From positions 1,560,001 to 1,592,000 of the forward strand of contig OY781039.1 in assembly GCA_963676105.1 (NCBI GenBank): 32,000 bases of DNA, given 5' to 3'. The notes under the pieces are model-generated. The model was given only the letters and a program-made list of their open reading frames with translations, was not told the DNA's origin and ran no database searches. Of the stretch, positions 2,512 through 14,350 are shown piece after piece (within the stretch, counting starts at the first letter, position 1; the number at the start of each line of letters is the position of its first letter). The stretch comes from Erysipelotrichaceae bacterium. GTDB taxonomy: Bacteria > Bacillota_I > Bacilli_A > Erysipelotrichales > Erysipelotrichaceae. The position numbers and the translations under genes are program-made.

Positions 2512-2521
2512 TTATTAGAAG

Positions 2522-2557
2522 AAAAGCAAACTATTTTATCAGTAGTTTGCTTTTTTT
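2522..2557 (+). terminator. Rho-independent terminator of dusB-lysS
   Basis: Perfect 12-bp stem aaaagcaaacta (2522-2533) / tagtttgctttt (2543-2554), 9-nt loop, T-run to 2557. Confidence 0.8.
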
Positions 2558-2870
2558 AGGACTCCACTTGTTGACATGAGTTGTATTAATCCAATAATGT
2601 CTTTATCAAACCACAATCTATCATGGACACCTGCAATAGACCATATGATTACGACATAACCATTTGGATCTCTACCGTCAATCATATAAGTATCATTAAG
2701 ATAAATAATTTTGTCGATTGCTTATTGTGCAATTGACACCACAATAAGATTTGTTTTGCCAAATACATTCTAAGATATCAGTGACGATAACTGTTATCTC
2801 GAACCATTTGTTGTCAATCGTTCAATACAATATCATGGGTATTTATATACTCTAAATCAGGTGAAGTGTA
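2539..2870 (-). pseudogene. Decayed remnant of an unidentified gene
   Basis: Minus-strand translation gives protein-like segments (IDNKWFEITVIVTDILECI / FGKTNLIVVSIAQ*AIDKIIYLNDTYMIDGRDPNGYVVIIWSIAGVHDRLWFDKDIIGLIQLMSTSGVLKKANY*). They are broken by an in-frame stop and at least one frameshift. No intact ORF of 60 aa or more lies in 2560-3225. Confidence 0.3.
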
Positions 2871-3176
2871 AATTTGCTACTGAAAATATTTAATATTGCG
2901 TTCAACTTACATGATAAGGGGGATATTTAAATCTTTTGATTATGTGAAAGTTCTAAGGGTCAAATCAGCAGGAAATTCATGTTACTATCGTTTGCATATT
3001 TGTAGTCTATTAATACAAAAAAATATTGATCTAAACGTAGTTTTTTTCACACGCTAATTGATGGGTTAATTCCAAAGCTAGGTTTTCTTGTATCTCAACA
3101 TCTCGGCTTTACTAATAAACTATTTTTCTATCCAAAAAATAATAATAACATTCAAAAACAAAAATAGAATCAAAAT

Positions 3177-3207
3177 AGTTGTAAAAAACAACTAATAATG
3201 ATATTTT
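3177..3207 (+). promoter_or_regulatory. Candidate promoter (TTGTAA-17-TGaTATTTT) with overlapping palindrome AGTTGT-N5-ACAACT (3177-3193), a possible MarR operator
   Basis: -35-like ttgtaa at 3179-3184. Extended -10 with TG at 3199-3200 plus tatttt at 3202-3207. Perfect 6+5+6 inverted repeat at 3177-3193. GGAG at 3216-3219 precedes the ATG at 3226. Confidence 0.3.
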
Positions 3208-3225
3208 TTAAAAAAGGAGATTGTC

Positions 3226-3651
3226 ATGCTGCTTTGTAACATTAGTATTATGAATCGATATGGAAAGAATAAATTAGACGAATTACTAATACCGTTTAAT
3301 TTAGATTGGTATCAATTTGCTGCAATATGGTTAATTGATGGTATTCCAGGGATTTCACAAAATGATATGATCCCATTTTTACAGACTGATAAAGGAAATG
3401 TCTCTAAAATTATTAAGAAATTAATTGAAGAAGAACTTGTTTATACACATAAGAGTGAGGATGATAATCGTAAAAAAGGGTGTTATCTAACACTTAAAGG
3501 CAAAGATTTAGTTCCAACACTGAAAAGGGTTATGAGTGATTGGGAAGATATTTTATACAAAAATATCAGTAAAGAAGAGTTAGAAATATTTGATAAAGTA
3601 AGCTCTCAAATATCAGTAAACTTAACACAAAATATGGAGAAATTTAAATGA
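3226..3651 (+). CDS. MarR-family winged-helix transcriptional regulator
   Basis: 141 aa. wHTH core (ISQNDMIPFLQTDKGNVSKIIKKLIEEELV..DDNRKKGCYLTLKG) typical of MarR. Good SD. Stop overlaps the next start (ATGA). Confidence 0.8.
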   Translation: MLLCNISIMNRYGKNKLDELLIPFNLDWYQFAAIWLIDGIPGISQNDMIPFLQTDKGNVSKIIKKLIEEELVYTHKSEDDNRKKGCYLTLKGKDLVPTLKRVMSDWEDILYKNISKEELEIFDKVSSQISVNLTQNMEKFK

Positions 3652-5420
3652 TCATTACAGGAAGAGCAATCTATAGATTAATTCTATCTGGTGCCAACAA
3701 TATTGTAGTTAATGAAACAACTCTCAATAGGATTAATGTCTTCCCTGTTCCCGATGGAGATACGGGAACCAATTTATCATTAACAATGAATCAAATATTA
3801 AGAGAGACTGTTGAACATGATTATGCTTTTATGCAATTAGAAAATATTGCGAAAGTGGCAGTAAACAATGCTTATGGTAATTCTGGCATGATTTTTGCTG
3901 AATATTTAAGTGGATTAGCTGAAAATCTTAATAATCAAAAAGAACTTAAGAGAAATGATCTTATCAAGGCGTTTTCACATGCATATGCTAAAGCGAAACA
4001 ATCTGTTTCACAGCCGAAAGAAGGCACAATTTTAAGTGTCATGCGTTCGTGGGCAGAGTTGTTGGAAAAATCAGTTCATCTAGAGATTGAACATCTATTT
4101 TCTGAGAATTTAGAGAAATTGTTTTTAGCTGTTGAAAACACAAAAGAACAGATGAGAATTTTAAAAGATAATAATGTAGTTGATGCAGGTGCATTAGCGT
4201 TTTTCTTCTTTGTTGAAGGAATGGTTAAATATCTTAAAAATGGTGATCAAACGGAATTAGAATTTAAGGCTTCTAAGATGGAATTTATTAGAGAGCCATT
4301 AAAGTCATTAGATATTGGTAAATACCGCTATTGTTGTCAATATCAAATAAAAGCAAGTACTGATTCTAAAGAATTAGAGACGAAACTAAAAGAATTTGGT
4401 GATTCGATTGTAACCCATCATGATAATCAAAATTTAAGTGTACATATGCATAGCAATCAACCTGCAGAACTTATGAAAGAACTTTTAAAGATCGGACCAG
4501 TTTTAAAACACAAAGTTGATGACATGCTTTTACAGTCAAATATGATCCATAAACCAAAATCTAAAATTGCTATTTTAACGGATTCTATAGCAGATTTACC
4601 TGCATCTTTCATTGATGAAAATCAAATAGCTGTTTTACCATTAAATATTATTATTGACTCAATTGTATACAAAGATAAAGTAACAATGACTTCTGACTAC
4701 TTCTATCAGTATTTAGATAATTTTAGAATGAGTCCAACATCGTCCCAACCTAACGTTGAAAGCATAGAGCGTTTTTTAAGCGAAATCATAAGGAATTATG
4801 ATGAAATCATAGGTATATTTGTTTCATCAAGGATGAGTGGTACTTATCATAATATACTTAATGTTCTAGAAAAAATTGAAACGACAAATAAAAAGATTAA
4901 AATCATTGATTCAAAGACAAATTCAGTTGCTCAAGGTTTAATTGTTTATGATCTAGTTCAAAAAAGGAATGACGGTTATAATTTTGACAAACTTGTTTTA
5001 TATGCTGACAAGTTAGTTGAAAATTCAGAAATATTTGTAAGCGTAAAAGATTTAAAGTACATGATAAAAGGCGGAAGAGTATCAAAATTACAAGGCAAGT
5101 TACTTTCCTTAGTAAAACTAAAGCCTGTAATTTCGATCGATAATAATGGTCTTGGCATTATACCTTTTAAGACACTAAGCCAAAAAAGCGCAGTAAATTC
5201 CATACTTAATAAAATAAAGAAGGATCTATCAAAGTCAAAGATATCTAAATATGCATTAGTGTACGCAGATAAAGAATTGGACTTGGAAATACTCAAAAAG
5301 AAAGTTAATAAAATACTGGAAAAAGAACCTGAATATATTGAATGTATTTCCCCAATTGTAGGATTAAATGCTGGTAAAGGTGCATTTGCGATTGCATACC
5401 TTAAGGATGAGATAGGTTAA
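3648..5420 (+). CDS. Fusion protein: FakA-like DhaL/Dak2 kinase domain + FakA-like central domain + complete DegV (FakB-like) fatty-acid-binding domain
   Basis: N-terminal VFPVPDGDTGTN (Dak2/DhaL). Middle YRYCCQY..GDSIVTHHDNQNLSVHMHSNQP (YloV/FakA central-domain-like). C-terminal half from about nt 4560 carries DegV motifs IAILTDSIADLP, PTSSQP, SSRMSGTY, IKGGRVS. Confidence 0.8.
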   Translation: MIITGRAIYRLILSGANNIVVNETTLNRINVFPVPDGDTGTNLSLTMNQILRETVEHDYAFMQLENIAKVAVNNAYGNSGMIFAEYLSGLAENLNNQKELKRNDLIKAFSHAYAKAKQSVSQPKEGTILSVMRSWAELLEKSVHLEIEHLFSENLEKLFLAVENTKEQMRILKDNNVVDAGALAFFFFVEGMVKYLKNGDQTELEFKASKMEFIREPLKSLDIGKYRYCCQYQIKASTDSKELETKLKEFGDSIVTHHDNQNLSVHMHSNQPAELMKELLKIGPVLKHKVDDMLLQSNMIHKPKSKIAILTDSIADLPASFIDENQIAVLPLNIIIDSIVYKDKVTMTSDYFYQYLDNFRMSPTSSQPNVESIERFLSEIIRNYDEIIGIFVSSRMSGTYHNILNVLEKIETTNKKIKIIDSKTNSVAQGLIVYDLVQKRNDGYNFDKLVLYADKLVENSEIFVSVKDLKYMIKGGRVSKLQGKLLSLVKLKPVISIDNNGLGIIPFKTLSQKSAVNSILNKIKKDLSKSKISKYALVYADKELDLEILKKKVNKILEKEPEYIECISPIVGLNAGKGAFAIAYLKDEIG

Positions 5421-6187
5421 TGATAGAACTTAATTTAATCATTATTATAGTGGTGTATTTCTTAATCTGGTTCTTCATAAATACTTTATTAAAGAATGCA
5501 GGGCTAATTGATATCGCATGGGGTTTAGGCTTTGTTTTGCTTGCAATCACCCAATATGTTAATAACATAAGCTCACTTGGATTGATATTACTTATGATGG
5601 TAGCCATTTGGGGCTTAAGACTAAGTTGGCATATTGGAAAGAGAAATATCAACAACCCAGAAGATCACCGATATCAAAAATTTAGAAATGATTGGGGCAA
5701 ACATTATATATTGCGTGCAATCTTTCAAATTTATATTTTACAAGCAATACTTATGTTAATTGTTTCGATGACATTTCTTGATGGCATAAAACAGTCCGAA
5801 CTAAAGTCATTGGTTGGATTAATTATTGGTGCTATTGTTTATTCAATTGGCTTGGGATTTGAAGTGATTTCTGATTACCAAATGGAGAAATTTAAAAAAG
5901 ATATAAAGAATAAAGGACAGCTTATGACAAGTGGTTTATGGTCACTTAGTCGACACCCAAATTATTTCGGTGAAGCAACATTATGGTTAGGAATAGCTAT
6001 CACATCAATATCTATAGGATCAAACTTAGTTGCATTAATAGGCGCGTTTACAATATTCTATCTCGTTAGATTCTTATCAGGAACACCATTAATGGAGAAG
6101 AGAATTAAAGAATATGAAGAATTTAAATCTTATGAAAAAGAGGTGCCGATTTTCTTCCCAAAATTGAAAGGAGCTCTAAAAAAATGA
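5420..6187 (+). CDS. DUF1295-family polytopic membrane protein (steroid-5-alpha-reductase / ICMT-like superfamily)
   Basis: 255 aa, multiple TM segments. Motifs WGLRLSWHIGKRN..EDHRY and SDYQ..F....GLWSLSRHPNYFGE are characteristic of DUF1295. Start overlaps the upstream stop by 1 nt (TAATG). Confidence 0.8.
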   Translation: MIELNLIIIIVVYFLIWFFINTLLKNAGLIDIAWGLGFVLLAITQYVNNISSLGLILLMMVAIWGLRLSWHIGKRNINNPEDHRYQKFRNDWGKHYILRAIFQIYILQAILMLIVSMTFLDGIKQSELKSLVGLIIGAIVYSIGLGFEVISDYQMEKFKKDIKNKGQLMTSGLWSLSRHPNYFGEATLWLGIAITSISIGSNLVALIGAFTIFYLVRFLSGTPLMEKRIKEYEEFKSYEKEVPIFFPKLKGALKK

Positions 6188-6582
6188 AATTATTTATTCA
6201 CTTTATAATTACTTTTTTTGTATTTTTAAGCATTGACCTAATCTGGCTTGGCTTTATTGCCAAGAATATTTATGCAAATGCAATTGGTCATTTAATGAGT
6301 TCAAATGTTAACTGGCCAGCAGCGATAATATTTTACGTTATCTTTGTAGTCGGTATTTTATATTTTGTCGTTGAGCCAGCATTAATACATCAAGATATCA
6401 CTAAATTATTAATTTCTGCTGCTCTGTTTGGGTTTATAACATATGCAACATATGATTTAACGAATCTTGCAACACTCAAAGATTGGCCTGTCACTATTAC
6501 AATTATCGACTTAACTTGGGGTACAAGTTTATCACTTCTAGTTTCGATCATTTCATATTTTTTAATCAAGTTAATTTCATAG
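6184..6582 (+). CDS. DUF2177-like small integral membrane protein
   Basis: 132 aa, about 4 TM segments. Pattern IDLIWLGF...Y, ...TYATYDLTN.A.L.DWP...DL.WG matches my recollection of DUF2177. ATGA overlap with the DUF1295 gene. Confidence 0.65.
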   Translation: MKLFIHFIITFFVFLSIDLIWLGFIAKNIYANAIGHLMSSNVNWPAAIIFYVIFVVGILYFVVEPALIHQDITKLLISAALFGFITYATYDLTNLATLKDWPVTITIIDLTWGTSLSLLVSIISYFLIKLIS

Positions 6583-6599
6583 TTTAAAGGAGATATTCT

Positions 6600-7544
6600 A
6601 TGTTTGTAAAACCAAAAATATTAGTAAGTGATTGCCTTGGATTTAAAGCATGTCGTTATGATGCCTCTCAAATCAATGCACCACTTATTCAAGCGTTAGA
6701 ACCCTTTGTTGAGTATATAAGAGTTTGTCCAGAAGTTGCGATAGGACTACCAACACCAAGAGAAAGTTTAAGACTGATAGAGGATATTGAATATCCAAAG
6801 TTAGTTATTTCAAAATCAGGTAAAGACTTGACAGAAAAGATGAAGAATTTCTCAAATAATTTTATAGGAAATATTTCTCAGGTGCATGGTTTTCTATTAA
6901 AAAGCAGATCGCCATCATGCGGTACAAAAGATGTAAAAATTTATCATACATATGGGGTATCAAGCGCGATTGGGAAGGGCAAAGGTCTGTTTGCGCAAGA
7001 GGTTTTTAATTACTATCCTACACATCCAATTGAAGAGGAGGGTCGATTAACTAATTTTGCGATAAGAGAAGAGTACTTTTATAAGATATTTACGTTGGCT
7101 GAGTATGATGAATCAGTCAGAACAGTTAATGATCTCGTCAAATTTCACACGAAGCATAAGTATGCAATGATGTCATATCAACCTTTGAGAATGACAGAAC
7201 TTGGACAAATTGTCTCAAAATCAAGCAAGCGAACACAAAGTGATGATATTCAAGAGTACAAAGAGAGTTTGTATCAATTACTATCAGAAACGACTAGTAT
7301 TGGACGAAATATAAATACACTTAGTCATCTTTATGGGTATTTCAAAGATGATTTAAATGAATTAGAAAAAGAACATTATTTTACAACACTTGAATTATAC
7401 AAAAACCTGCAAATTCCCTTTTCAGTACCGATATCGATTATTTATTCATGGGCATTACGCTTTAAAAACGTCTACTTATTAAACCAATCAATCTTAAATC
7501 CATTTCCAAAAGAACTCATGAATCTACATGATAGTGGGAACTAA
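6600..7544 (+). CDS. TudS (DUF523) - DUF1722 fusion, RudS/YbgA-like putative [4Fe-4S] thio-nucleobase / tRNA 4-thiouridine desulfidase
   Basis: 314 aa. N-terminal DUF523 pattern with three candidate cluster cysteines (SDC12LG, VC43PE, SPSC107G). C-terminal DUF1722 pattern (HTKHKYAMMSY...LNQSILNPFPKEL). AAGGAG SD at 6587-6592. Confidence 0.8.
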   Translation: MFVKPKILVSDCLGFKACRYDASQINAPLIQALEPFVEYIRVCPEVAIGLPTPRESLRLIEDIEYPKLVISKSGKDLTEKMKNFSNNFIGNISQVHGFLLKSRSPSCGTKDVKIYHTYGVSSAIGKGKGLFAQEVFNYYPTHPIEEEGRLTNFAIREEYFYKIFTLAEYDESVRTVNDLVKFHTKHKYAMMSYQPLRMTELGQIVSKSSKRTQSDDIQEYKESLYQLLSETTSIGRNINTLSHLYGYFKDDLNELEKEHYFTTLELYKNLQIPFSVPISIIYSWALRFKNVYLLNQSILNPFPKELMNLHDSGN

Positions 7545-7563
7545 AAAAATATGAAGGAGATCA

Positions 7564-8187
7564 ATGATGAATTTAAAAGAAAAATATATTGATGCTTTAA
7601 ACGATTTAAATCACGATAAGTGCATATTATTACTTGATGAATATTTAAGTAGTGATGATGCAAACTTTGATGAAGCATTTGATTTAGTATCACAAGCACT
7701 ATCTTTATCCGTAAACTGCTCAACAGATGAAATATGGACAGAACATGCTAAGACGCAAATTGTAAGATCTAGCATAGAATTATTATCTATTTATATCATT
7801 AAAAATACACCACTTAAAAATCAAGAGAAAATCGCTATCATTTGTCCTAATGGAGAATATCATGAATTAGGGGCGAGAATGGTTAGTGAAGCTATACGAA
7901 AAGAAGGATTTAATGCGCTCTTTTTAGGTAACAGTTTACCCAATAAAGATATTGTAGAGTTGGTTAAATCTTGTGATTTAAAAGCGATTGTTTTTAGTAT
8001 TTCAAACTTTTTTACAATGCACTCGATTAATCCTGTTATTGACGAAATAAACAAAATTAGACCAGAGTTAAAGATTATACTTGGTGGACAAGCCATTAAT
8101 CATAATCCTAGTCAAATTCACGGTCAAAATTGTGAATTGTGTACAACTTTCGATCAATTGAAAGAAGTGTTGGAGGCGATGAAATGA
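7564..8187 (+). CDS. Stand-alone cobalamin-binding protein (helical B12-binding_2-like cap + Rossmann B12-binding domain), CarH/LitR-sensor-like, no DNA-binding domain
   Basis: 207 aa, no TM or signal peptide. KIAIICPNGEYHELGARMVSEAIRKEGFNALFLG...AIVFSIS...KIILGG. The His-on motif is E-x-H-x-x-G (nt 7855-7872). SD spacing suggests the second ATG (7567) may be the true start. Stop overlaps the permease start. Confidence 0.75.
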   Translation: MMNLKEKYIDALNDLNHDKCILLLDEYLSSDDANFDEAFDLVSQALSLSVNCSTDEIWTEHAKTQIVRSSIELLSIYIIKNTPLKNQEKIAIICPNGEYHELGARMVSEAIRKEGFNALFLGNSLPNKDIVELVKSCDLKAIVFSISNFFTMHSINPVIDEINKIRPELKIILGGQAINHNPSQIHGQNCELCTTFDQLKEVLEAMK

Positions 8188-9326
8188 AATTAGCATTTAA
8201 TATTGCGAGGCGTTTCTTAAACTATAATAAAGGTCAAACTTTACTTATTGTATTAGGGATAGCGATTGGAATATCAGTTCAAATTTTTATAGGTCTACTT
8301 ATCTCTGGTTTACAAGATTCACTCATTGATAGCACAATTGGTAGTAGCGCTCACATTACAATAAGTTCACAAACAAGAGGTGAGAATTTTGATTTCGACA
8401 ATAATTATTTAAATGACTTAAAAGAGAATGAAAATTTTACGAATGTTGGTATTAGTGTCAGTGGCCCAGCATTTGGTGTATTTGACGAAAAGAGTCAATC
8501 CATACTTTTTAGAGGTTTAGATTCTGAAGTGCTTGATATAAACAATCTTGAAAGCAAAATCATTGAAGGAACATTAGATATTAATAAAGGTATCGTCATT
8601 GGTAAAGGTTTAGCTGAACAACTTGAAATCGGTATTAATGATTATTTAACAATTCAACCAATCAATAATACAAGTACTGATTTTTTAGTTACCGGGATTG
8701 CTGATTTTAAAGTAGCGGTACTGAATGACAGTTGGGTTATTTCAAAACCTGATATTGTGCAAGAAACATTGTTGATAGATAATCAAATATCAGCGATTGA
8801 GATTCAAGTAGATGAAGTTTTTAGTGCTGATGTTTATGCAGCAGATTTAACTGTGCCATCAGGCTTAAGTGTTATTGATTGGAAAGCACAAAACGAAGAA
8901 CTATTATCTGGTTTAAATGGTCAAAGTGTATCAACTTATATGATTCAAGTCTTTGTATTAGTTTCGGTAGTTTTAGGAATCGCATCAACTCTCGCGATTA
9001 CTGTTTTACAAAAATCTAAGCAAATTGGGATCTTAAAAGCGATGGGAATAAAGAATTCTCAAGCATCGCTTATCTTTATGTTTCAAGGGATTATCTTAGG
9101 AATTCTTGGGGGCTTACTGGGAATGGGATTAGGCTATGGCTTACTTGAGATGTTTTCTACATTTGCGAAAAATTCAGACGGTAGCCCAATTATTCCAATT
9201 ACCTTTGACCTACAGTTTATATTATTATCGGGATCAATTGCAGTGATATCATCGTTTATCGCATCACTTATTCCAGCTAGAAAATCACTTAAACTATCTG
9301 TTATCGAGGTAATACGAAATGGCTAA
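8184..9326 (+). CDS. ABC transporter permease, FtsX/MacB/LolCE type (TM1, large extracytoplasmic domain, 3 C-terminal TMs)
   Basis: The ORF track starts at 8139. ATG 8184 (MKLAFNIARRFL..) is preferred because GGAGG lies at 8172-8176 and it forms an ATGA overlap with the upstream stop. Topology and N-terminus are typical of the FtsX family. Confidence 0.85.
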   Translation: MKLAFNIARRFLNYNKGQTLLIVLGIAIGISVQIFIGLLISGLQDSLIDSTIGSSAHITISSQTRGENFDFDNNYLNDLKENENFTNVGISVSGPAFGVFDEKSQSILFRGLDSEVLDINNLESKIIEGTLDINKGIVIGKGLAEQLEIGINDYLTIQPINNTSTDFLVTGIADFKVAVLNDSWVISKPDIVQETLLIDNQISAIEIQVDEVFSADVYAADLTVPSGLSVIDWKAQNEELLSGLNGQSVSTYMIQVFVLVSVVLGIASTLAITVLQKSKQIGILKAMGIKNSQASLIFMFQGIILGILGGLLGMGLGYGLLEMFSTFAKNSDGSPIIPITFDLQFILLSGSIAVISSFIASLIPARKSLKLSVIEVIRNG

Positions 9327-9996
9327 AATATTAGAACTAAATAATATCAAAAAATCCTATGGTGAAACTGAAGTTCTACATGGACTTAGCTTTGATTTAG
9401 AAGAAGGTTCATTTACATCAATCATTGGACAGTCAGGTTCAGGTAAAAGTACGCTTCTCAATATCTTGGGAACACTTGATAATGCGAGTCAGGGCAGTCT
9501 TAGAATTAATGGTGTATCAACGGAAACACTAAAAGGCAAAAAACTAGCTGAACTTAGAAATACTACACTTGGCTTTATCTTTCAATTTCATCACTTGCTT
9601 CCAGAATTTTCAGCTCTAGAAAATATTTTGATGCCTGTTAAAATCCAAAAAGGAAAAGTCACAAAAGAGGATTTACAATGGGCAGAAGAGCTTATAGAAG
9701 TCGTTGGGTTAAGTAAAGTTAAAAATAATAACGCCTTTAAAATGTCTGGTGGTCAACAACAACGTACTGCTATTGCACGTGCACTTATGAACAAACCTAA
9801 ACTCATCTTAGCAGATGAACCAACCGGAAACTTAGATAGTGATACAGCTGAAAATATTTACCAACTTATGCGTTCAATTAATGCAAAGTACAACACAAGT
9901 TTCCTAATCATTACACATGATCAAGATATAGCTCAAAAAGCGGATCGAATTATCGAAATAAAAGATGGACATATTGTGCTAGATGTTTCTAAATGA
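9319..9996 (+). CDS. ABC transporter ATP-binding protein (LolD/MacB-type)
   Basis: Walker A GQSGSGKST, signature MSGGQQQR, Walker B LILADEPTGNLD. 8-nt overlap with the permease gene. Confidence 0.9.
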   Translation: MAKILELNNIKKSYGETEVLHGLSFDLEEGSFTSIIGQSGSGKSTLLNILGTLDNASQGSLRINGVSTETLKGKKLAELRNTTLGFIFQFHHLLPEFSALENILMPVKIQKGKVTKEDLQWAEELIEVVGLSKVKNNNAFKMSGGQQQRTAIARALMNKPKLILADEPTGNLDSDTAENIYQLMRSINAKYNTSFLIITHDQDIAQKADRIIEIKDGHIVLDVSK

Positions 9997-10040
9997 TTAA
10001 AGTGCAAAACATGTATCTGTTTAGATTTTATCTTTAAATT

Positions 10041-10076
10041 AAAAAAACTGGAGTTCATTTGAATTCCAGTTTTTAT
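10041..10076. terminator. Bidirectional rho-independent terminator between the convergent ABC operon and nrdJ
   Basis: A-run, 10-bp stem actggagttc (10047-10056) / gaattccagt (10061-10070), T-run. The stem has one G.U pair on the + transcript, which is a mismatch on the - transcript. Confidence 0.7.
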
Positions 10077-10083
10077 ATATAAT

Positions 10084-12594
10084 TTATAATCCGCACTTGA
10101 GTTGAGCATTACAGTTGGTACATGTATTACATCCACCAATTTCCTCAACTGTACCTTCTAAGCAGATAGGACAGATATCACCAACTTCAACACCGATGTT
10201 ACGGTCTTGTCTGTCAGCTCTTAAGTCTGTTTTCTTTTCTTCAGGTTGTTGTTCTTTGACATTGACTCCAAAGTCATGGACTAAGTCCATTTGAGCCCAG
10301 TTGTTTTCATCATCATTGGTGAGTGTGAGAACTTGAGCATCACGTGATCCATCAACATAAACTGTTCCGCCTTTAGCTTTACCTGCGTAGAGTCTCTCAT
10401 AGATTTTTTGAACTTGTCTAACGGTAAATCCACGAGGGGCATTAACTGTTTTAGAAATTGAAGAATCAATCCATCTTTGAATTGCACATTGTGTATCAGC
10501 GTGTTCTTCAGGTGTAAGATCCATAGCGGCGACAAAGTACTCTGGGAGTGTTTGTCTTGTATATTCAGGATTGAGTTCTAAGAAGTCATCCACGATTTGT
10601 GCATTAACTTCAATAAACTTACCTAAACGTCCAGAACGATAATAACTAAATGAGAAGTAAGGTTCGAGTCCTGTAGATACACCGACCATAGTCCCAGTAG
10701 AACCGGTAGGGGCAATCGTTAATAAGTGAGAGTTACGGATACCATGTTTGAGAACACCTTGACGAATTTCTTCACTCATGGTTTTCATGTAGCCGGTATT
10801 GATAAATTCTTCTCTAGATTCTAAGAATGGGAATGAACCCTTCTCAGCAGCTAGATCAATGGATGTTTTATAAGCAGATTCTGCGATTGTTTTAAATACT
10901 TCATCTATCGTCTCGATTGATTCAGGTGAACCATAACGTTTCTTAGACCAGATGAGTAAGTCATGAAGACCCATAACCCCTAATCCAACACGTCTTTCGC
11001 TTAAAGCTTGAGTTTTATTTGGCTCTAGGAAGTAAGGTGTATCATCAATAACGTTATCTTGCATACGTACAGTTAAGGCAACTGTATGAGCAAGTGCATC
11101 GAATTGGATTTCGCCAGTTTTGCGATCAACGAAGTTTGCGAGATTAACAGCCGCTAAGTTACAAACTGAATAAGGCGCTAATGGTTGTTCACCACAAGGG
11201 TTAGTTGCGACAACTTTTTGTCCATAAGCTTTTGCGTTTGTCATATCGTTAGCATTATCAATGAAGAAGATACCTGGTTCTGCAGAATAGGTAGCACAGA
11301 AGTTAATTAAGTCCCATAGGTCTCTTGCTTTAATGGTTCTGTAAACTTTAACAGGATAGCCCATTTCTTCCCATTCACGAACATCACCAATTTCATGCCA
11401 TCTTAGATCATAAACTTCTTTTTCTTCTTTAGAGAAGTTTTGTAAATCTGGGAATCGTAATTGGAAGTCGCCATCATTTTCAACAGCGTTCATAAATTCT
11501 TTAGTGATTGTGACAGATATATTAGCTCCTGTTAAGAACTCAGGATTTAAAACTTCTAATGTTCCTCCATCAGCGAGTTTTGATCGAGCGTGGTTGATAA
11601 TATGTTGTTCAGCAGTTTTGCTTTCAGCTAATTCTTCATACATTTCTCTTTCAATACGTGAGAATTCTTTATATTTAATATGCTTTTCAGCTTCTTTACG
11701 AATTTGTTCATCATTTGAATTTTCAATAAGCCATTTTAAGACTTTAGCATTTTGCATCTTTGAAATGATGAATTCAATGATATCAGGATGCCAGTCAGCC
11801 ATCATGATCATTTGCGCACCACGACGTGAGCCACCTTGTTCAACTAAGTGTGTTAGGTTAGCTAAGTCATTTAACCAAGAAACAGCACCTGATGATTTAC
11901 CACCAACGCCTTTTGCAGGAGCACCTTTTGGTCTTAGTGTTGAACCATTAGTCCCAACACCGCCACCACGTGACATGATTTCCATAACTTCTTTACGGTG
12001 TTCTGAAATACCACCACGTGAATCATGGACAAAAGGCATAACAAAGCAGTTGAAGTATGTAACTTGAGTGCCTGATCCAGCACCAAATAAAACACGTCCT
12101 GCAGGGATGGTGTTCATCTTCTCTAATTGTTCAGAAAAGAGTTGTCCATATTTTTCTTGATCAGCTTCTGATTTTTCAGTAGAGGCTAATGCATGACCTA
12201 CGCGGCGTGCAATTTGTTCATAATATATTTCAATCGGTTTATCTACTTGATGAAGTGGTCGTTTAACAAGGCCGGTTTCAGCCTCGGTTTCATCTTCGAG
12301 GGATCCACGGAATTCTTCTTCAAGTAAGATAGAGACAATATCCCCATCAATAGCTTGAACAGATCCGATACCACGAGAAGGGAATTTAGGGTCTTCTTTT
12401 ACAACTGTAACAACAATATCACCAACACCAAGTGTTTTATGACTTCTATCTTTTTGCGCATAACGATCGAGCATGACTAAACGAGACACGCCTTGGTGTG
12501 TTAGTTTATCAGTCTCTAAAATTTGATAAATATGCGGAAAATGCGTACTGATGTCCGCATTCAGCTTTTGTACAGTTACATCTGAATACTTCAT
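10084..12594 (-). CDS. nrdJ: Adenosylcobalamin-dependent ribonucleotide reductase, class II
   Basis: 836 aa. RNR barrel motifs (NPCGEQPL, TIAPTGS). No ATP-cone. C-terminal Cys-rich tail CPICLEGTVEEIGGCNTCTNCNAQLKCGL, typical of class II enzymes. Confidence 0.9.
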   Translation of the reverse strand: MKYSDVTVQKLNADISTHFPHIYQILETDKLTHQGVSRLVMLDRYAQKDRSHKTLGVGDIVVTVVKEDPKFPSRGIGSVQAIDGDIVSILLEEEFRGSLEDETEAETGLVKRPLHQVDKPIEIYYEQIARRVGHALASTEKSEADQEKYGQLFSEQLEKMNTIPAGRVLFGAGSGTQVTYFNCFVMPFVHDSRGGISEHRKEVMEIMSRGGGVGTNGSTLRPKGAPAKGVGGKSSGAVSWLNDLANLTHLVEQGGSRRGAQMIMMADWHPDIIEFIISKMQNAKVLKWLIENSNDEQIRKEAEKHIKYKEFSRIEREMYEELAESKTAEQHIINHARSKLADGGTLEVLNPEFLTGANISVTITKEFMNAVENDGDFQLRFPDLQNFSKEEKEVYDLRWHEIGDVREWEEMGYPVKVYRTIKARDLWDLINFCATYSAEPGIFFIDNANDMTNAKAYGQKVVATNPCGEQPLAPYSVCNLAAVNLANFVDRKTGEIQFDALAHTVALTVRMQDNVIDDTPYFLEPNKTQALSERRVGLGVMGLHDLLIWSKKRYGSPESIETIDEVFKTIAESAYKTSIDLAAEKGSFPFLESREEFINTGYMKTMSEEIRQGVLKHGIRNSHLLTIAPTGSTGTMVGVSTGLEPYFSFSYYRSGRLGKFIEVNAQIVDDFLELNPEYTRQTLPEYFVAAMDLTPEEHADTQCAIQRWIDSSISKTVNAPRGFTVRQVQKIYERLYAGKAKGGTVYVDGSRDAQVLTLTNDDENNWAQMDLVHDFGVNVKEQQPEEKKTDLRADRQDRNIGVEVGDICPICLEGTVEEIGGCNTCTNCNAQLKCGL

Positions 12595-12671: not shown

Positions 12672-13133
12672 TTATAGTTCTTTTGAGAAAACAAAATCTG
12701 ATAATCTATTAATGTATTTAATAAAGTCTATATTAATACTCTCTGATAATGAATAGGCAATTAACACTCTTTCGACGCGTCTTACTTTTGCGCGAATAAG
12801 ATGCAAATGAGCTTTTAATTCATTGTCGAATGGAAAGATGAATTGATGTGTTAGATTTTGTTTTTTCTTAATTTCTTGATCAAAATAATCAATGTGTTCA
12901 CTTAAATCTATATCATCTAAGTAGCCTGAAAGAACACTACTTATTTGATAGAGATCGTTGACCACCATGACACAATCTTTTTTGTCTAAGTGAAATAAAG
13001 ATTGATGATAGATGAGTTCACTTGATAATTCGTCAATTTCACCTAAAAGGTTAATTAATGGATCACTTTTAGACAAGCGTTTATTTTTTACATCTGTTTG
13101 GCCAGTATCGCCCTTTTTAGTTGAGATTGTCAT
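12672..13133 (-). CDS. pduO: PduO-type ATP:cob(I)alamin adenosyltransferase (short form)
   Basis: 153 aa. N-terminal TKKGDTGQT matches the PduO-type T-K-x-G-D-x-G-x-T ATP motif. Helical-bundle-like remainder. Last gene of a cobalamin-riboswitch-controlled unit. Confidence 0.75.
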   Translation of the reverse strand: MTISTKKGDTGQTDVKNKRLSKSDPLINLLGEIDELSSELIYHQSLFHLDKKDCVMVVNDLYQISSVLSGYLDDIDLSEHIDYFDQEIKKKQNLTHQFIFPFDNELKAHLHLIRAKVRRVERVLIAYSLSESINIDFIKYINRLSDFVFSKEL

Positions 13134-13638
13134 TGAATTGATATTTCCTCATGAGTTGTTTAATCACTCGATAAATCGGCTTATATAACAATATTATAAG
13201 GATATAATTGGACGCTGCGTGAACTAAATCAAACAAAAGTCCTCTAAACCAATAAATAAGTCCCATATTGAAACCATACAAAAGCGCATGTTGAGCCGCA
13301 AAGAGGAGACCAAAAGCAAATCCAAAGAGGGCACCTGAAATAGCCCAAAACTGGTCTTTGTCTTTAATGAGTGGTTTCAAGGCTTGAACGATAATCATCC
13401 ACAATGTCCAAATCCATAGATACGCTAATACCCAATCACCAAAGCCCCAAACTAAACCCTCTAATAATGAGAATATAAAAACGACAATGAGGGATTCTTT
13501 CCAATTTATAAATTGAGCTATGATCAAGAACAAGAGTGTAACAAGTTCAACATTTGGAAGAGAAGCCATTGCGATTTGCGAAACAAAGGCAGTTGTGGCG
13601 ATTAATGCAAGCAATATCCACCGTTTAAGTGAGCGCAT
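13117..13638 (-). CDS. ECF-transporter S-component-like membrane protein, putative cobalamin-specific (CbrT-like)
   Basis: 173 aa, 5-6 hydrophobic helices rich in aromatics and Gly. Position under a cobalamin riboswitch, between a DUF4430-like gene and an adenosyltransferase gene. The family assignment rests mainly on context. Confidence 0.5.
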   Translation of the reverse strand: MRSLKRWILLALIATTAFVSQIAMASLPNVELVTLLFLIIAQFINWKESLIVVFIFSLLEGLVWGFGDWVLAYLWIWTLWMIIVQALKPLIKDKDQFWAISGALFGFAFGLLFAAQHALLYGFNMGLIYWFRGLLFDLVHAASNYILIILLYKPIYRVIKQLMRKYQFNDNLN

Positions 13639-13640
13639 GA

Positions 13641-14084
13641 TTAGTAAGTAGATGTGAAGTTTAATTCAAAATTATCTTGATCATAGATGCTTTGAAGATC
13701 AATACCGTTACAAAATCCTGCTTCTAAACAATCAACGTTATTCTCTGAATTGATTAACCACCAAGGACCAGTTGTCATATCCTCAGTTATATCTTCATTG
13801 ATGGAAAGAATCATTCTTCCCCAGGTATCCGTTTTTTCACCACTATAAGTGATTTCGATTTCATCATAGAACTCATCAACTTCATCTAATAAATCACCAA
13901 GTGTTTCTGAATCGGTATGAACTGTATTTTCAAATACAACTGTTTCACCTTCTTCAGTATCTACCACAATAGAAAGTTGAATATCTTTTTCACCTTCCAT
14001 TCTTGGGAAAATCATTGGTTTTAGAAGTCCGTAGGCTCCAAATGCGACCAATAATACTGTAATAATGCTTAAAAATTTCTTCAT
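13641..14084 (-). CDS. Membrane-anchored or secreted DUF4430-like protein (transcobalamin beta-domain-like), putative extracellular cobalamin-capture protein
   Basis: 147 aa. N-terminal hydrophobic anchor MKKFLSIITVLLVAFGAYGLL. C-terminal pattern TGPWWLINSENNV...GIDLQSIYDQDNFELNF resembles DUF4430 (G.W...vNg....l.dgD...f.y). First gene after the riboswitch. Confidence 0.55.
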   Translation of the reverse strand: MKKFLSIITVLLVAFGAYGLLKPMIFPRMEGEKDIQLSIVVDTEEGETVVFENTVHTDSETLGDLLDEVDEFYDEIEITYSGEKTDTWGRMILSINEDITEDMTTGPWWLINSENNVDCLEAGFCNGIDLQSIYDQDNFELNFTSTY

Positions 14085-14099
14085 GACTAGCCTCCTTAA

Positions 14100-14126
14100 A
14101 TAAAAAACACATCCTTAAGATGTGTA
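14100..14126 (-). terminator. Intrinsic terminator forming the riboswitch expression platform
   Basis: The minus transcript reads acacatc-ttaag-gatgtgt followed by UUUUUUA, immediately before the AAGGAGG SD of the DUF4430-like gene. An upstream cttaagat (about 14150-14158) can pair with atcttaag inside the terminator as an alternative, antiterminator-like helix. Confidence 0.65.
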
Positions 14127-14179
14127 AAAAAGACAGTTTGTGCCTTTTTATCTTAAGTCCCAGAAGATAATGGAGTTTG

Positions 14180-14335
14180 CTTTTGTTGGCAGGTCTACTG
14201 GCTGATCGTTCATCCTCTAAGCACCTTCCCGAAACGTTTCTCTCAGTGGTATCTTGCTTATCGTCACGACCTACAGTTGCTGGGACAGCTTTGTTTACTA
14301 CAAATTCCCTATTGAGCTCATTGAGCACCAAAGTA
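14180..14335 (-). promoter_or_regulatory. Cobalamin (AdoCbl-type) riboswitch aptamer
   Basis: The minus strand carries the conserved elements. GGTGC...AGGGAA at + coords 14305-14310. GCTGTCCCAGCAACTGTA at 14271-14290. CCACTG...GGGAAGG at 14221-14249. B12 box CAGCCAGTAGACCTGCCAAC at 14185-14204. Confidence 0.85.
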
Positions 14336-14344
14336 AGCATGTTC

Positions 14345-14350
14345 ATTATA
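14345..14350 (-). promoter_or_regulatory. Consensus -10 box (TATAAT) upstream of the riboswitch
   Basis: Perfect TATAAT on the minus strand about 10 nt before the start of the aptamer. No convincing -35 at 16-18 nt spacing. Confidence 0.35.

Follow-up and report, generated by a model that had tools for sequence, protein, structure and literature searches.

What could unite a transcriptional regulator, a set of lipid-handling proteins, a tRNA desulfidase-like enzyme, a cobalamin-binding protein and an ATP-binding cassette (ABC) transporter in one run of closely packed genes? The question is raised by a stretch of 32,000 nucleotides (nt) of an Erysipelotrichaceae genome (contig OY781039.1; the whole stretch is referred to as the window), in which a scan for open reading frames (ORFs) places eight genes on the plus strand (3226-9996), between lysS and nrdJ. 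The initial annotation had taken them for a light- and B12-responsive gene set in which a MarR regulator and a free B12-binding domain stand in for the usual CarH-type fusion. The comparison of related loci points elsewhere: judged by gene linkage, the actual partner of the B12-binding protein is the pump encoded directly downstream, not MarR. The reading that we favour, with a confidence that falls a little short of an even chance, is that of a composite operon for photoprotection, built around a cobalamin (probably light) sensor that is coupled to a type VII ABC transporter, with RudS, a lipid triad, MarR and, formerly, a photolyase as accessory parts.

An exact-sequence look-up of the window B12 protein, in its form of 207 amino acids (aa) or as the database entry P0001, gave no record, and its context was therefore taken from homologues. 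A profile search of 1.84 billion representatives returned 38 clusters at E <=1e-30 and exposed a distinct body of stand-alone proteins of 205-225 aa, and a metagenome scan with a 60-sequence alignment gave >443 relatives, for which 80 loci were kept; the comparison covers about 90 loci in all (designated by L numbers), 80 of them metagenomic. The gene of an FtsX permease directly follows the B12 gene in 65 of the 67 loci with enough DNA, and that of an ABC ATPase follows the permease in 56 of 57, with modal overlaps of 4 nt (B12/FtsX) and 8 nt (FtsX/ABC). This B12-FtsX-ABC trio persists down to 24% identity of the B12 protein and, among the metagenomic loci, over locus GC contents from 0.26 to 0.69. 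In the reciprocal direction, all three sampled homologues of the permease (53-67% identity) have a B12 gene of 207-210 aa overlapping the permease start. The trio was confirmed in Acetivibrio cellulolyticus and on a Thermoplasmata contig, where it lies beside an archaeal primase gene; the named sources (among them Acetivibrio cellulolyticus, Dethiosulfatibacter aminovorans, Velocimicrobium, Solirubrobacterales, Thermoplasmata, Methanomassiliicoccales) are all single-membrane organisms. Of the four linkages for which a neighbourhood survey had been suggested, that to FtsX is thus conserved, that to DUF1295 holds in part (10 loci), that to RudS is confined to a sub-branch, and that to MarR was not found to be conserved.

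By its sequence, the pump belongs to the type VII (mechanotransmission) ABC transporters, and its hosts have no Lol pathway. The permease combines MacB_PCD with the FtsX helices, the ATPase is a nucleotide-binding domain of LolD/MacB type, and the PDB matches are LolF, LolC, LolE and MacB, LolF being the best for the permease (4e-17). It does not correspond to LolCDE proper, as the permease reaches 106 bits with NCBIfam lolCE (1.8e-30) versus a cut-off of 362, and the ATPase 265 bits with LolD (5e-79) versus 308, both under the equivalog cut-offs, and the hosts identified by name belong to Erysipelotrichaceae, Clostridia, Actinomycetota and Thermoplasmata. An HrtBA-like tetrapyrrole exporter was considered as well and ruled out, NCBIfam and PDB searches placing the permease with LolC/E/F and MacB and giving no Hrt match.

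This distribution bears on the proposal that the free B12 domain works as a co-regulator in the manner of AerR/PpaA and acts via MarR, a split CarH that would make the operon responsive to light and B12 at the level of transcription. Stand-alone B12 proteins acting through a separate transcription factor do exist, AerR matches the family profile (6.5e-5), and the window holds both MarR and a conserved candidate operator. However, of the ~90 trio loci compared, the window and L006/L012 alone have MarR; the sister loci at the same site have RudS and the trio, or the trio alone, without a regulator (in L013, the B12 gene begins 27 nt after lysS), and all other lineages have the trio alone or with AraC or XRE-B12 regulators. 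The linkage of MarR and B12 genes that the initial annotation would lead one to expect is thus not borne out by the homologue survey, in which the constant companions of the B12 gene are the genes of the permease and the ATPase and not any regulator. No linkage to a target transcription factor of the AerR/PpaA type was seen either, with no conserved regulator in the other ~90 loci, and we consider this explanation quite improbable.

The B12 gene may start at 7564 (207 aa) or at 7567 (206 aa); the second start is more likely because it is better spaced from the ribosome-binding site GAAGGAG (7553-7559) and agrees with the 206-aa entry P0001. The AlphaFold2 model (pLDDT 91.4) consists of a four-helix bundle (helices 3-80) and then a Rossmann beta/alpha domain, as in the four-helix cap and cobalamin domain of the CarH/LitR type, and the top PDB matches found with Foldseek are the cobalamin-binding domain (CBD) of TtCarH and photocobilin (E about 1e-10, TM-score up to 0.80). 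The family profile likewise has photocobilin 8J2W as its best PDB match (1.2e-11), ahead of corrinoid methyl carriers, CarH and AerR. No MerR-type DNA-binding domain was found at the N-terminus: Pfam recognizes only PF02310 in this protein, and the model begins with the helical bundle. In a Thermoplasmata locus (L109, 1653-2726), the B12 protein is 357 aa long, with an N-terminal extension of ~150 aa without Pfam domain, and its gene still overlaps that of the permease.

The resemblance to methyl carriers could also mean that the 206-aa protein is the corrinoid protein of an MtbC/MtaC-type methyltransferase system, given that the two-domain architecture and the size are alike, that the JGI auto-annotation labels some members MtbC1, and that 4jgi, 2i2x and 3ezx, all of them corrinoid proteins, are among the profile matches (1e-7 to 1e-5). 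Yet no methyltransferase gene adjoins the trio in about 90 loci, the motifs are ExHxxG and EH instead of DxHxxG, and the scores with the NCBIfam corrinoid-protein families all lie far under the cut-offs. This explanation was already disfavoured, and we hold it to be extremely improbable.

The conserved residues of the B12 protein are more telling. W57, E59, H60, E97, H99, G102 and G121 are invariant in the alignments, and E59, H60, E97, H99 and G121 remain so in 60 diverse members. The published signature of light-responsive CBDs consists of GxxW, EH, GxxH and GxxxP (SignatureFinder, PMC11796333); E59-H60, G96-E-Y-H99 and G121-N-S-L-P125 represent three of these elements, are invariant in both alignments, and the EH dipeptide, the G...P pattern and ExHxxG were found in 69/69 trio-linked ORFs with a regular-expression scan. 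At the position of the GxxW/Wx9EH tryptophan (W131 of TtCarH), ten residues before E59, the window protein has a valine. Wx9EH occurs in 0/69 full-length trio-linked proteins and WxEH, with the tryptophan two residues before EH, in 68/69; 76 of the top 150 representatives carry WxEH alone, the canonical Wx9EH proteins turning up only further down. Three sampled Wx9EH proteins with a DNA-binding domain carried HTH_3 or MerR (P0272, P0277, L022). Because nearly all trio-linked proteins have WxEH while fusions to DNA-binding domains were seen only among the sampled Wx9EH proteins, WxEH appears to mark the transporter-linked subfamily, in a fusion comparison that leaves aside the motif type of the L047, L075 and L096 regulators (see below). 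Going by these motifs, the B12 protein is a distinct CarH-like subfamily, with WxEH instead of Wx9EH and with the histidine ligand motif and GxxxP kept. Rosetta-stone fusions of the WxEH domain were also sought, and the longer representatives P0199, P0206 and P0214 had no second Pfam domain.

The features of the locus are collected in Table 1. The eight ORFs and all of their junctions, as first described, were borne out when the ORF coordinates were rechecked; every domain assignment was confirmed by Pfam, with which NCBIfam agrees, and the strong terminator announced downstream was found as a hairpin.

Table 1. Features of the eight-gene block and its surroundings (positions in the window).
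Feature	Position	Strand	Remarks
Decayed DNA photolyase (pseudogene remnants), divergent from MarR operon	2551-3135	-	tblastn, in-frame stops
Perfect palindrome TAGTTGT-N5-ACAACTA, 7-bp inverted repeat, candidate MarR operator	3176-3194		overlaps putative -35
Putative promoter TTGTAA, 17 nt, TG-n-TATTTT	3179-3207	+	weak, read from sequence
MarR-family regulator, 141 aa, lineage-specific add-on	3226-3651	+	Pfam MarR 3.4e-9
MarR/Fak fusion junction	3648	+	ATGA overlap
Fatty-acid-kinase (Fak) fusion, 590 aa: FakA N-terminal Dak2 and middle domains, full DegV (FakB)	3648-5420	+	
Fak fusion/DUF1295 junction	5420	+	TAATG, 1-nt overlap
DUF1295 membrane protein, steroid-5-alpha-reductase-like	5420-6187	+	Pfam DUF1295 1.7e-62, Steroid_dh 3e-9
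DUF1295/DUF2177 junction	6184	+	ATGA overlap
DUF2177 membrane protein	6184-6582	+	Pfam 1.1e-44
DUF2177/RudS-like junction	6582-6600	+	17-nt gap
RudS-like tRNA 4-thiouridine desulfidase (TudS and DUF1722)	6600-7544	+	Pfam 2-thiour_desulf 5.7e-35, DUF1722 1.6e-31
RudS-like/B12 junction		+	19-nt gap to start 7564; 22 nt to start 7567
Free-standing cobalamin-binding protein (206 aa), CarH-like, WxEH subtype	7567-8187	+	Pfam B12-binding 5e-14
B12/FtsX junction	8184	+	ATGA overlap
Type VII ABC permease, 380 aa, LolC/E/F-like	8184-9326	+	Pfam MacB_PCD 8e-14, FtsX 2.9e-15
FtsX/ABC ATPase junction	9319	+	8-nt overlap
LolD/MacB-type ABC ATPase, 225 aa	9319-9996	+	Pfam ABC_tran 1.2e-33
Bidirectional intrinsic terminator, common to operon and convergent nrdJ	10043-10074	both	fold energies
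NrdJ, B12-dependent ribonucleotide reductase	10084-12594	-	1361 bits, above cut-off
Cobalamin riboswitch of convergent operon	14171-14347	-	100 bits

Upstream of the trio, the Fak fusion unites all parts of a fatty acid kinase in one polypeptide (Pfam Dak2 3e-30, FakA-like_M 1.5e-17, DegV 6.6e-62; NCBIfam DegV 231.9 bits versus a cut-off of 99.7), DegV taking the place of the FakA C-terminal domain. The DUF1295 protein has weak PDB matches to SRD5A2 and a sterol reductase. In the RudS-like protein, Cys12, Cys43 and Cys107 correspond to the cluster ligands Cys12, Cys44 and Cys110 of RudS_ST, and from its sequence it qualifies as a RudS protein, with both domains fused and the three [4Fe-4S]-ligand cysteines present. 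RudS removes the UVA chromophore 4-thiouridine and is located in light operons (PMC11417400).

RudS accompanies the trio only in the sub-branch formed by the window, L001 and L006. Outside lineage synteny, DUF1295 recurs beside the trio in 10 loci, DUF2177 in 10, the Dak2-DegV fusion in at least 9, in differing gene orders, and photolyase in 6. Other Erysipelotrichales differ in arrangement and in genomic site. In L014-L020, an AraC gene lies upstream of the order DUF1295-DUF2177-B12-FtsX-ABC-Dak2/DegV, with a convergent GGDEF gene and a photolyase; L003/L004 share this arrangement without the Dak2/DegV fusion, and L021 reads Dak2/DegV-DUF1295-(106-aa membrane protein)-DUF2177-B12-FtsX. Photolyase adjoins the cluster in L003, L014-L020, L023 and L046.

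The families most typical of heliorhodopsin neighbourhoods are DUF2177, DegV and DUF1295, an association that prompted the hypothesis of a membrane lipid remodelling; the neighbours listed further include Dak2-DegV fusions, ABC transporters, photolyase and cobalamin-binding proteins (bioRxiv 10.1101/2021.02.16.431466). This heliorhodopsin-associated set stands beside the B12 gene in the window and in L003, L014-L021, L033, L047 and L065. A heliorhodopsin gene itself was not found near the trio: the flanks examined hold no candidate of the right size with seven transmembrane helices, and none is present in the window. DUF1295 and DUF2177 are, moreover, induced during singlet-oxygen acclimation in Chlamydomonas (PMC4067076), and heliorhodopsin regulates the ABC transporter OmrDE by direct contact (PMC11109279). 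The light-protection theme of the initial annotation is thus upheld by the photolyase neighbours, the photolyase pseudogene and the divergent CarH-like regulators described below, and the literature; its CarH-like protein is upheld as well, while the partnership with MarR is not. Similarly, its statement that no system of such composition had been described does not extend to DUF1295, DUF2177 and Dak2-DegV, known as a heliorhodopsin neighbourhood, and holds for the trio: searches for B12-binding proteins with FtsX or MacB, or for a B12-FtsX-ABC trio, found no paper in the literature, subscription papers being largely out of reach, so that this absence is no proof.

Among the more distant trios, the upstream recurrences are weak (aldo-keto reductase in 5, HTH_3-B12 regulators in 3, MsrA/B in 3) and the downstream flanks are mixed, PAS (3) and GGDEF (2) recurring. 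An aldo-keto reductase gene lies directly upstream of the trio in several of L037, L045, L071, L097 and L098, and downstream of it in Acetivibrio (L108, 9570-9968); together with the MsrA/MsrB neighbours, this hints at a link to oxidative or carbonyl stress. Regulators of the CarH-like architecture HTH_3-B12_2-B12 are encoded divergently on the minus strand in L047 (858-1748), L075 (2156-3040) and L096 (1942-2817), N-terminally truncated copies occurring in L068 and L103. As such a B12 regulator is divergent from the trio, the genomes of the former three encode a second, distinct B12 protein beside that of the trio. GGDEF genes are also found near the lineage-B clusters and PAS/GGDEF proteins downstream of trios, and in L039 a c-di-GMP-II riboswitch (4610-4693, minus strand) lies just upstream of the trio on the opposite strand, where it leads a divergent gene.

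Next to the window operon, the genes for the supply of adenosylcobalamin (AdoCbl) noted in the initial annotation are real, both the cobalamin riboswitch and the PduO gene. The riboswitch operon (12672-14347 and nrdJ) has the order 147-aa protein, 173-aa protein, PduO-type adenosyltransferase and NrdJ, and since the B12-dependent NrdJ, which the initial annotation had not mentioned, sits in the same operon, the supply genes have a client of their own. The 147-aa and 173-aa proteins, without Pfam or NCBIfam match and conserved in L001, L006 and L023, may be an undescribed pair for B12 capture and uptake. In L023, a photolyase gene and an ABM monooxygenase-like gene (10321-11934, minus strand) immediately follow nrdJ in the same orientation, and may be read from the cobalamin-riboswitch operon.

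Such a neighbour invites a light-independent explanation, namely a corrinoid system in which the B12 protein reports the cobalamin status to the pump, or passes or receives corrinoids that are to be exported, salvaged or detoxified, and in which photoprotection genes are merely neighbours in some lineages. The occurrence of the family in dark-dwelling anaerobes, the missing canonical adenosyl-packing tryptophan and the position of the trio beside the riboswitch-PduO-NrdJ operon in the window lineage would agree with this, as would HrtBA, a MacB-type pump that extrudes tetrapyrroles. B12 transport genes are, however, usually riboswitch-controlled, and a search for the cobalamin riboswitch RF00174 gave no match in 79 trio loci (495 kb), by which a B12 uptake or homeostasis system was ruled out; the window has a single riboswitch, that of the convergent nrdJ operon. 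The adjacency of NrdJ and the AdoCbl supply genes to the trio is synteny confined to one lineage and absent elsewhere, the permease is Lol-like without any Hrt or Btu similarity seen, and the sole neighbours that recur beyond lineage synteny are related to light or oxidation. Type VII pumps such as MacB and LolCDE, furthermore, take their substrates from the outside of the membrane and not from a cytoplasmic carrier. We regard a corrinoid system as unlikely, though far from negligible.

The upstream end of the operon holds traces of its history. The 714-nt gap between lysS and MarR, seemingly empty, contains the remains of a photolyase gene (tblastn of the L003 photolyase against 2512-3225, E = 5e-28), of which residues 1-65 and about 311-423 can be recognised, the part between them having been deleted; the remnant carries in-frame stop codons, and the scan found no ORF >=60 aa in this stretch. 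As these remains occupy the minus strand upstream, the palindrome (fold z-score -7.8) once separated a photolyase and a MarR unit of divergent orientation. Its arms are kept upstream of MarR in L006, the relative with 84% B12 identity, with a changed spacer (TAGTTGTtttatACAACAA). Judged by the comparison with this relative (MarR at 5663-6085), MarR is the fastest-evolving gene of the block, with 49% identity versus 72-88% for the other genes.

The lysS-nrdJ site varies in a graded manner. It holds the trio alone in L005, L008-L011 and L013 (45-53% B12 identity), RudS and the trio in L001/L002 (62%), the eight genes in the window (100%), and the eight genes preceded by an amine oxidase, SnoaL and short-chain dehydrogenase genes in L006/L012 (84%; Erysipelotrichaceae metagenome-assembled genome OY760660.1). 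From these sequences, a stepwise accretion at one locus in one Erysipelotrichaceae lineage is the best reading, and the low GC content of the block (0.285-0.32 over 3000-10000, versus 0.35-0.39 in both flanks) is consistent with a stepwise acquisition at this site. The three extra genes of L006 (2611-5546), upstream of MarR, encode an amine oxidase-like flavoprotein, a SnoaL_2/DUF2358 protein and a short-chain dehydrogenase, families known from the sigmaE-ChrR singlet-oxygen regulon and from furan fatty-acid synthesis; no remnants of them were found in the 714-nt gap of the window. The L006 locus also has a DDE transposase between ispD and glucitol genes.

One could object that there is no common function at all and that the lysS-nrdJ site is an insertion hot-spot of unrelated genes that are read through together. 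The variable content among close relatives, the lower GC content than in the flanks, the transposase near the L006 locus and the decayed neighbouring photolyase would all fit. Yet Dak2-DegV, DUF1295, DUF2177 and photolyase join the trio independently elsewhere and in other orders (L003, L014-L021, L033, L047, L065), and the genes of the window operon overlap, which implies translational coupling. We therefore consider a mere hot-spot improbable.

A single transcript of the eight genes, as initially assumed, is plausible from the gene spacing and lies beyond proof from sequence alone. As to the promoter-like region described upstream, the palindrome was recovered and the putative promoter is weak, its match (8/12) staying under the scan threshold. 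In this AT-rich region, promoter-like hexamers occur at chance level (42 found versus 44.7 expected), as do terminator-like sites (two of them internal; 3 found versus 2.7 expected), and splitting the operon by such a scan was uninformative, the counts being equal to chance; for this reason, the unity of the operon rests on the gene overlaps and not on signals. The hairpin downstream is calculated at -17.4 kcal/mol on the plus strand (z = -6.75) and at -13.1 kcal/mol on the minus strand (z = -5.1), and since it folds on the minus strand too, it is also the terminator of the convergent nrdJ.

Several observations weigh against a photoprotection operon with a light-sensing core. The adenosyl-packing tryptophan of CarH (Wx9EH) is missing in 69/69 trio-linked proteins, so that AdoCbl photochemistry is not assured. 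Many trios stand alone, most have no light-related neighbour, and many carriers are strict anaerobes from sludge or sediment (Acetivibrio, Dethiosulfatibacter, Methanomassiliicoccales), so that the general signal may be something other than light. The decay of the photolyase hints at a relaxed selection for light defence in the window genome, and the co-transcription of the eight genes is plausible rather than demonstrated. We know of no type VII ABC transporter with a sensor subunit in the cytoplasm. Given the missing tryptophan, the dark anaerobic hosts, the few light-related neighbours and the decayed photolyase, a pump gated by cobalamin status independently of light stays a serious alternative.

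If the composite photoprotection operon is nevertheless accepted as the working model, we infer that it was assembled stepwise between lysS and nrdJ from three units. The old core (7567-9996) would be the self-contained trio, in which the B12 gene is translationally coupled to permease and ATPase, and whose three proteins would form one complex with the cobalamin protein as a sensory or regulatory subunit of the pump. This subunit would bind a light-labile cobalamin, probably AdoCbl, in a His-on state in the dark; photolysis or loss of the cofactor would change its state and thereby switch, in one direction or the other, the ATPase-driven mechanotransmission of the permease. As the substrate of the pump, we would guess some outer-leaflet component, lipidic or photodamaged. 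Gene content, domains and the conserved linkage with its distribution are shown by the data, whereas cobalamin binding, light sensitivity, the complex, the direction of regulation and the substrate belong to the model. RudS (6600-7544), as the second unit, would strip the UVA chromophore 4-thiouridine from tRNA. The third (3226-6582) would bring in MarR, presumably a local repressor with the palindrome at 3176-3194 as its target, and the lipid-handling triad known from heliorhodopsin neighbourhoods, which may provide fatty-acid activation, a reductase-like membrane enzyme and the membrane protein DUF2177.

A bolder proposal, which we think unlikely on balance, is that the trio represents an unrecognised class of photoreceptor systems, in which a CarH-derived WxEH protein in the cytoplasm lets light switch a type VII ABC mechanotransducer, a class widespread in monoderms and, together with Dak2-DegV, DUF1295 and DUF2177, an alternative to heliorhodopsin for light-dependent membrane remodelling or repair. 

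With a cobalamin protein devoted to an ABC transporter, B12 photobiology would gain a third kind of output, the direct control of membrane transport, after transcription factors (CarH, AerR-CrtJ) and, more recently, the control of enzymes (photocobilins), monoderm type VII ABC transporters would gain a possible cytoplasmic regulatory subunit, and optogenetics a new part. The family would escape signature-based mining, because the published light signature requires the GxxW element that is absent here. The lipid genes of heliorhodopsin neighbourhoods (DUF2177, DegV, DUF1295) are tied here to an unrelated type of photoreceptor and a Lol-like pump, which strengthens the idea of a light-dependent lipid remodelling and makes it testable, and the presence of the trio in the culturable Acetivibrio cellulolyticus renders such tests practical. 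Being widespread, sharply defined by its motif and testable in a culturable host, the trio is of substantial interest.

How, then, does this locus compare with known systems? B12 photoreceptors and the regulation of ABC transport by photoreceptors are both known kinds, while for the trio itself no description was found in the searchable literature. With RudS (PMC11417400), the window protein shares the TudS-DUF1722 fusion, the three cluster cysteines and the context of light genes; it differs in being accompanied by MarR instead of a MerR/LitR regulator, and in being an accessory rather than a core gene of its cluster. The pump resembles LolCDE, LolFD and MacB in its MacB_PCD and FtsX four-helix permease and its LolD-like ATPase, with LolF, LolC and LolE as best PDB matches, and departs from them by scores below the equivalog cut-offs, by named hosts without outer membrane or Lol pathway, and by the additional cytoplasmic cobalamin-binding partner.

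For the cobalamin protein, the CBD of CarH/LitR (TtCarH, PDB 5C8A/5C8D) provides the architecture of four-helix bundle and Rossmann domain, the lower-ligand histidine in ExHxxG, the EH pair and GxxxP; the window protein, however, has no MerR DNA-binding domain, its conserved partner is an ABC transporter and not DNA, and its tryptophan lies two residues before EH instead of ten. AerR/PpaA (PDB 7TE2; PMC9144470) are stand-alone B12-binding proteins too, AerR acting on the transcription factor CrtJ (PMC9144470), whereas the B12 gene of the trio has no conserved transcription-factor neighbour, and the sequences are only weakly similar. The photocobilins (PDB 8J2W/8J2X/8J2Y; PMC10979010), B12 photoreceptors with outputs other than DNA, are closest by profile and by structure (TM-score 0.78-0.80), but they fuse a bilin-binding globin domain and keep Wx9EH, while the window protein is a bare CBD whose partner is encoded separately. 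A functional parallel is that of heliorhodopsin and OmrDE (PMC11109279), a non-pumping photoreceptor encoded with an ABC transporter that it modulates, as we propose for the window; the three lipid-related families, Dak2-DegV fusions among them, recur in the heliorhodopsin neighbourhoods, and the named hosts are single-membrane organisms. The two differ in their chromophore protein, soluble and of the cobalamin type here instead of a retinal protein with seven transmembrane helices, and in the pump, here of type VII instead of a type IV heterodimeric exporter.

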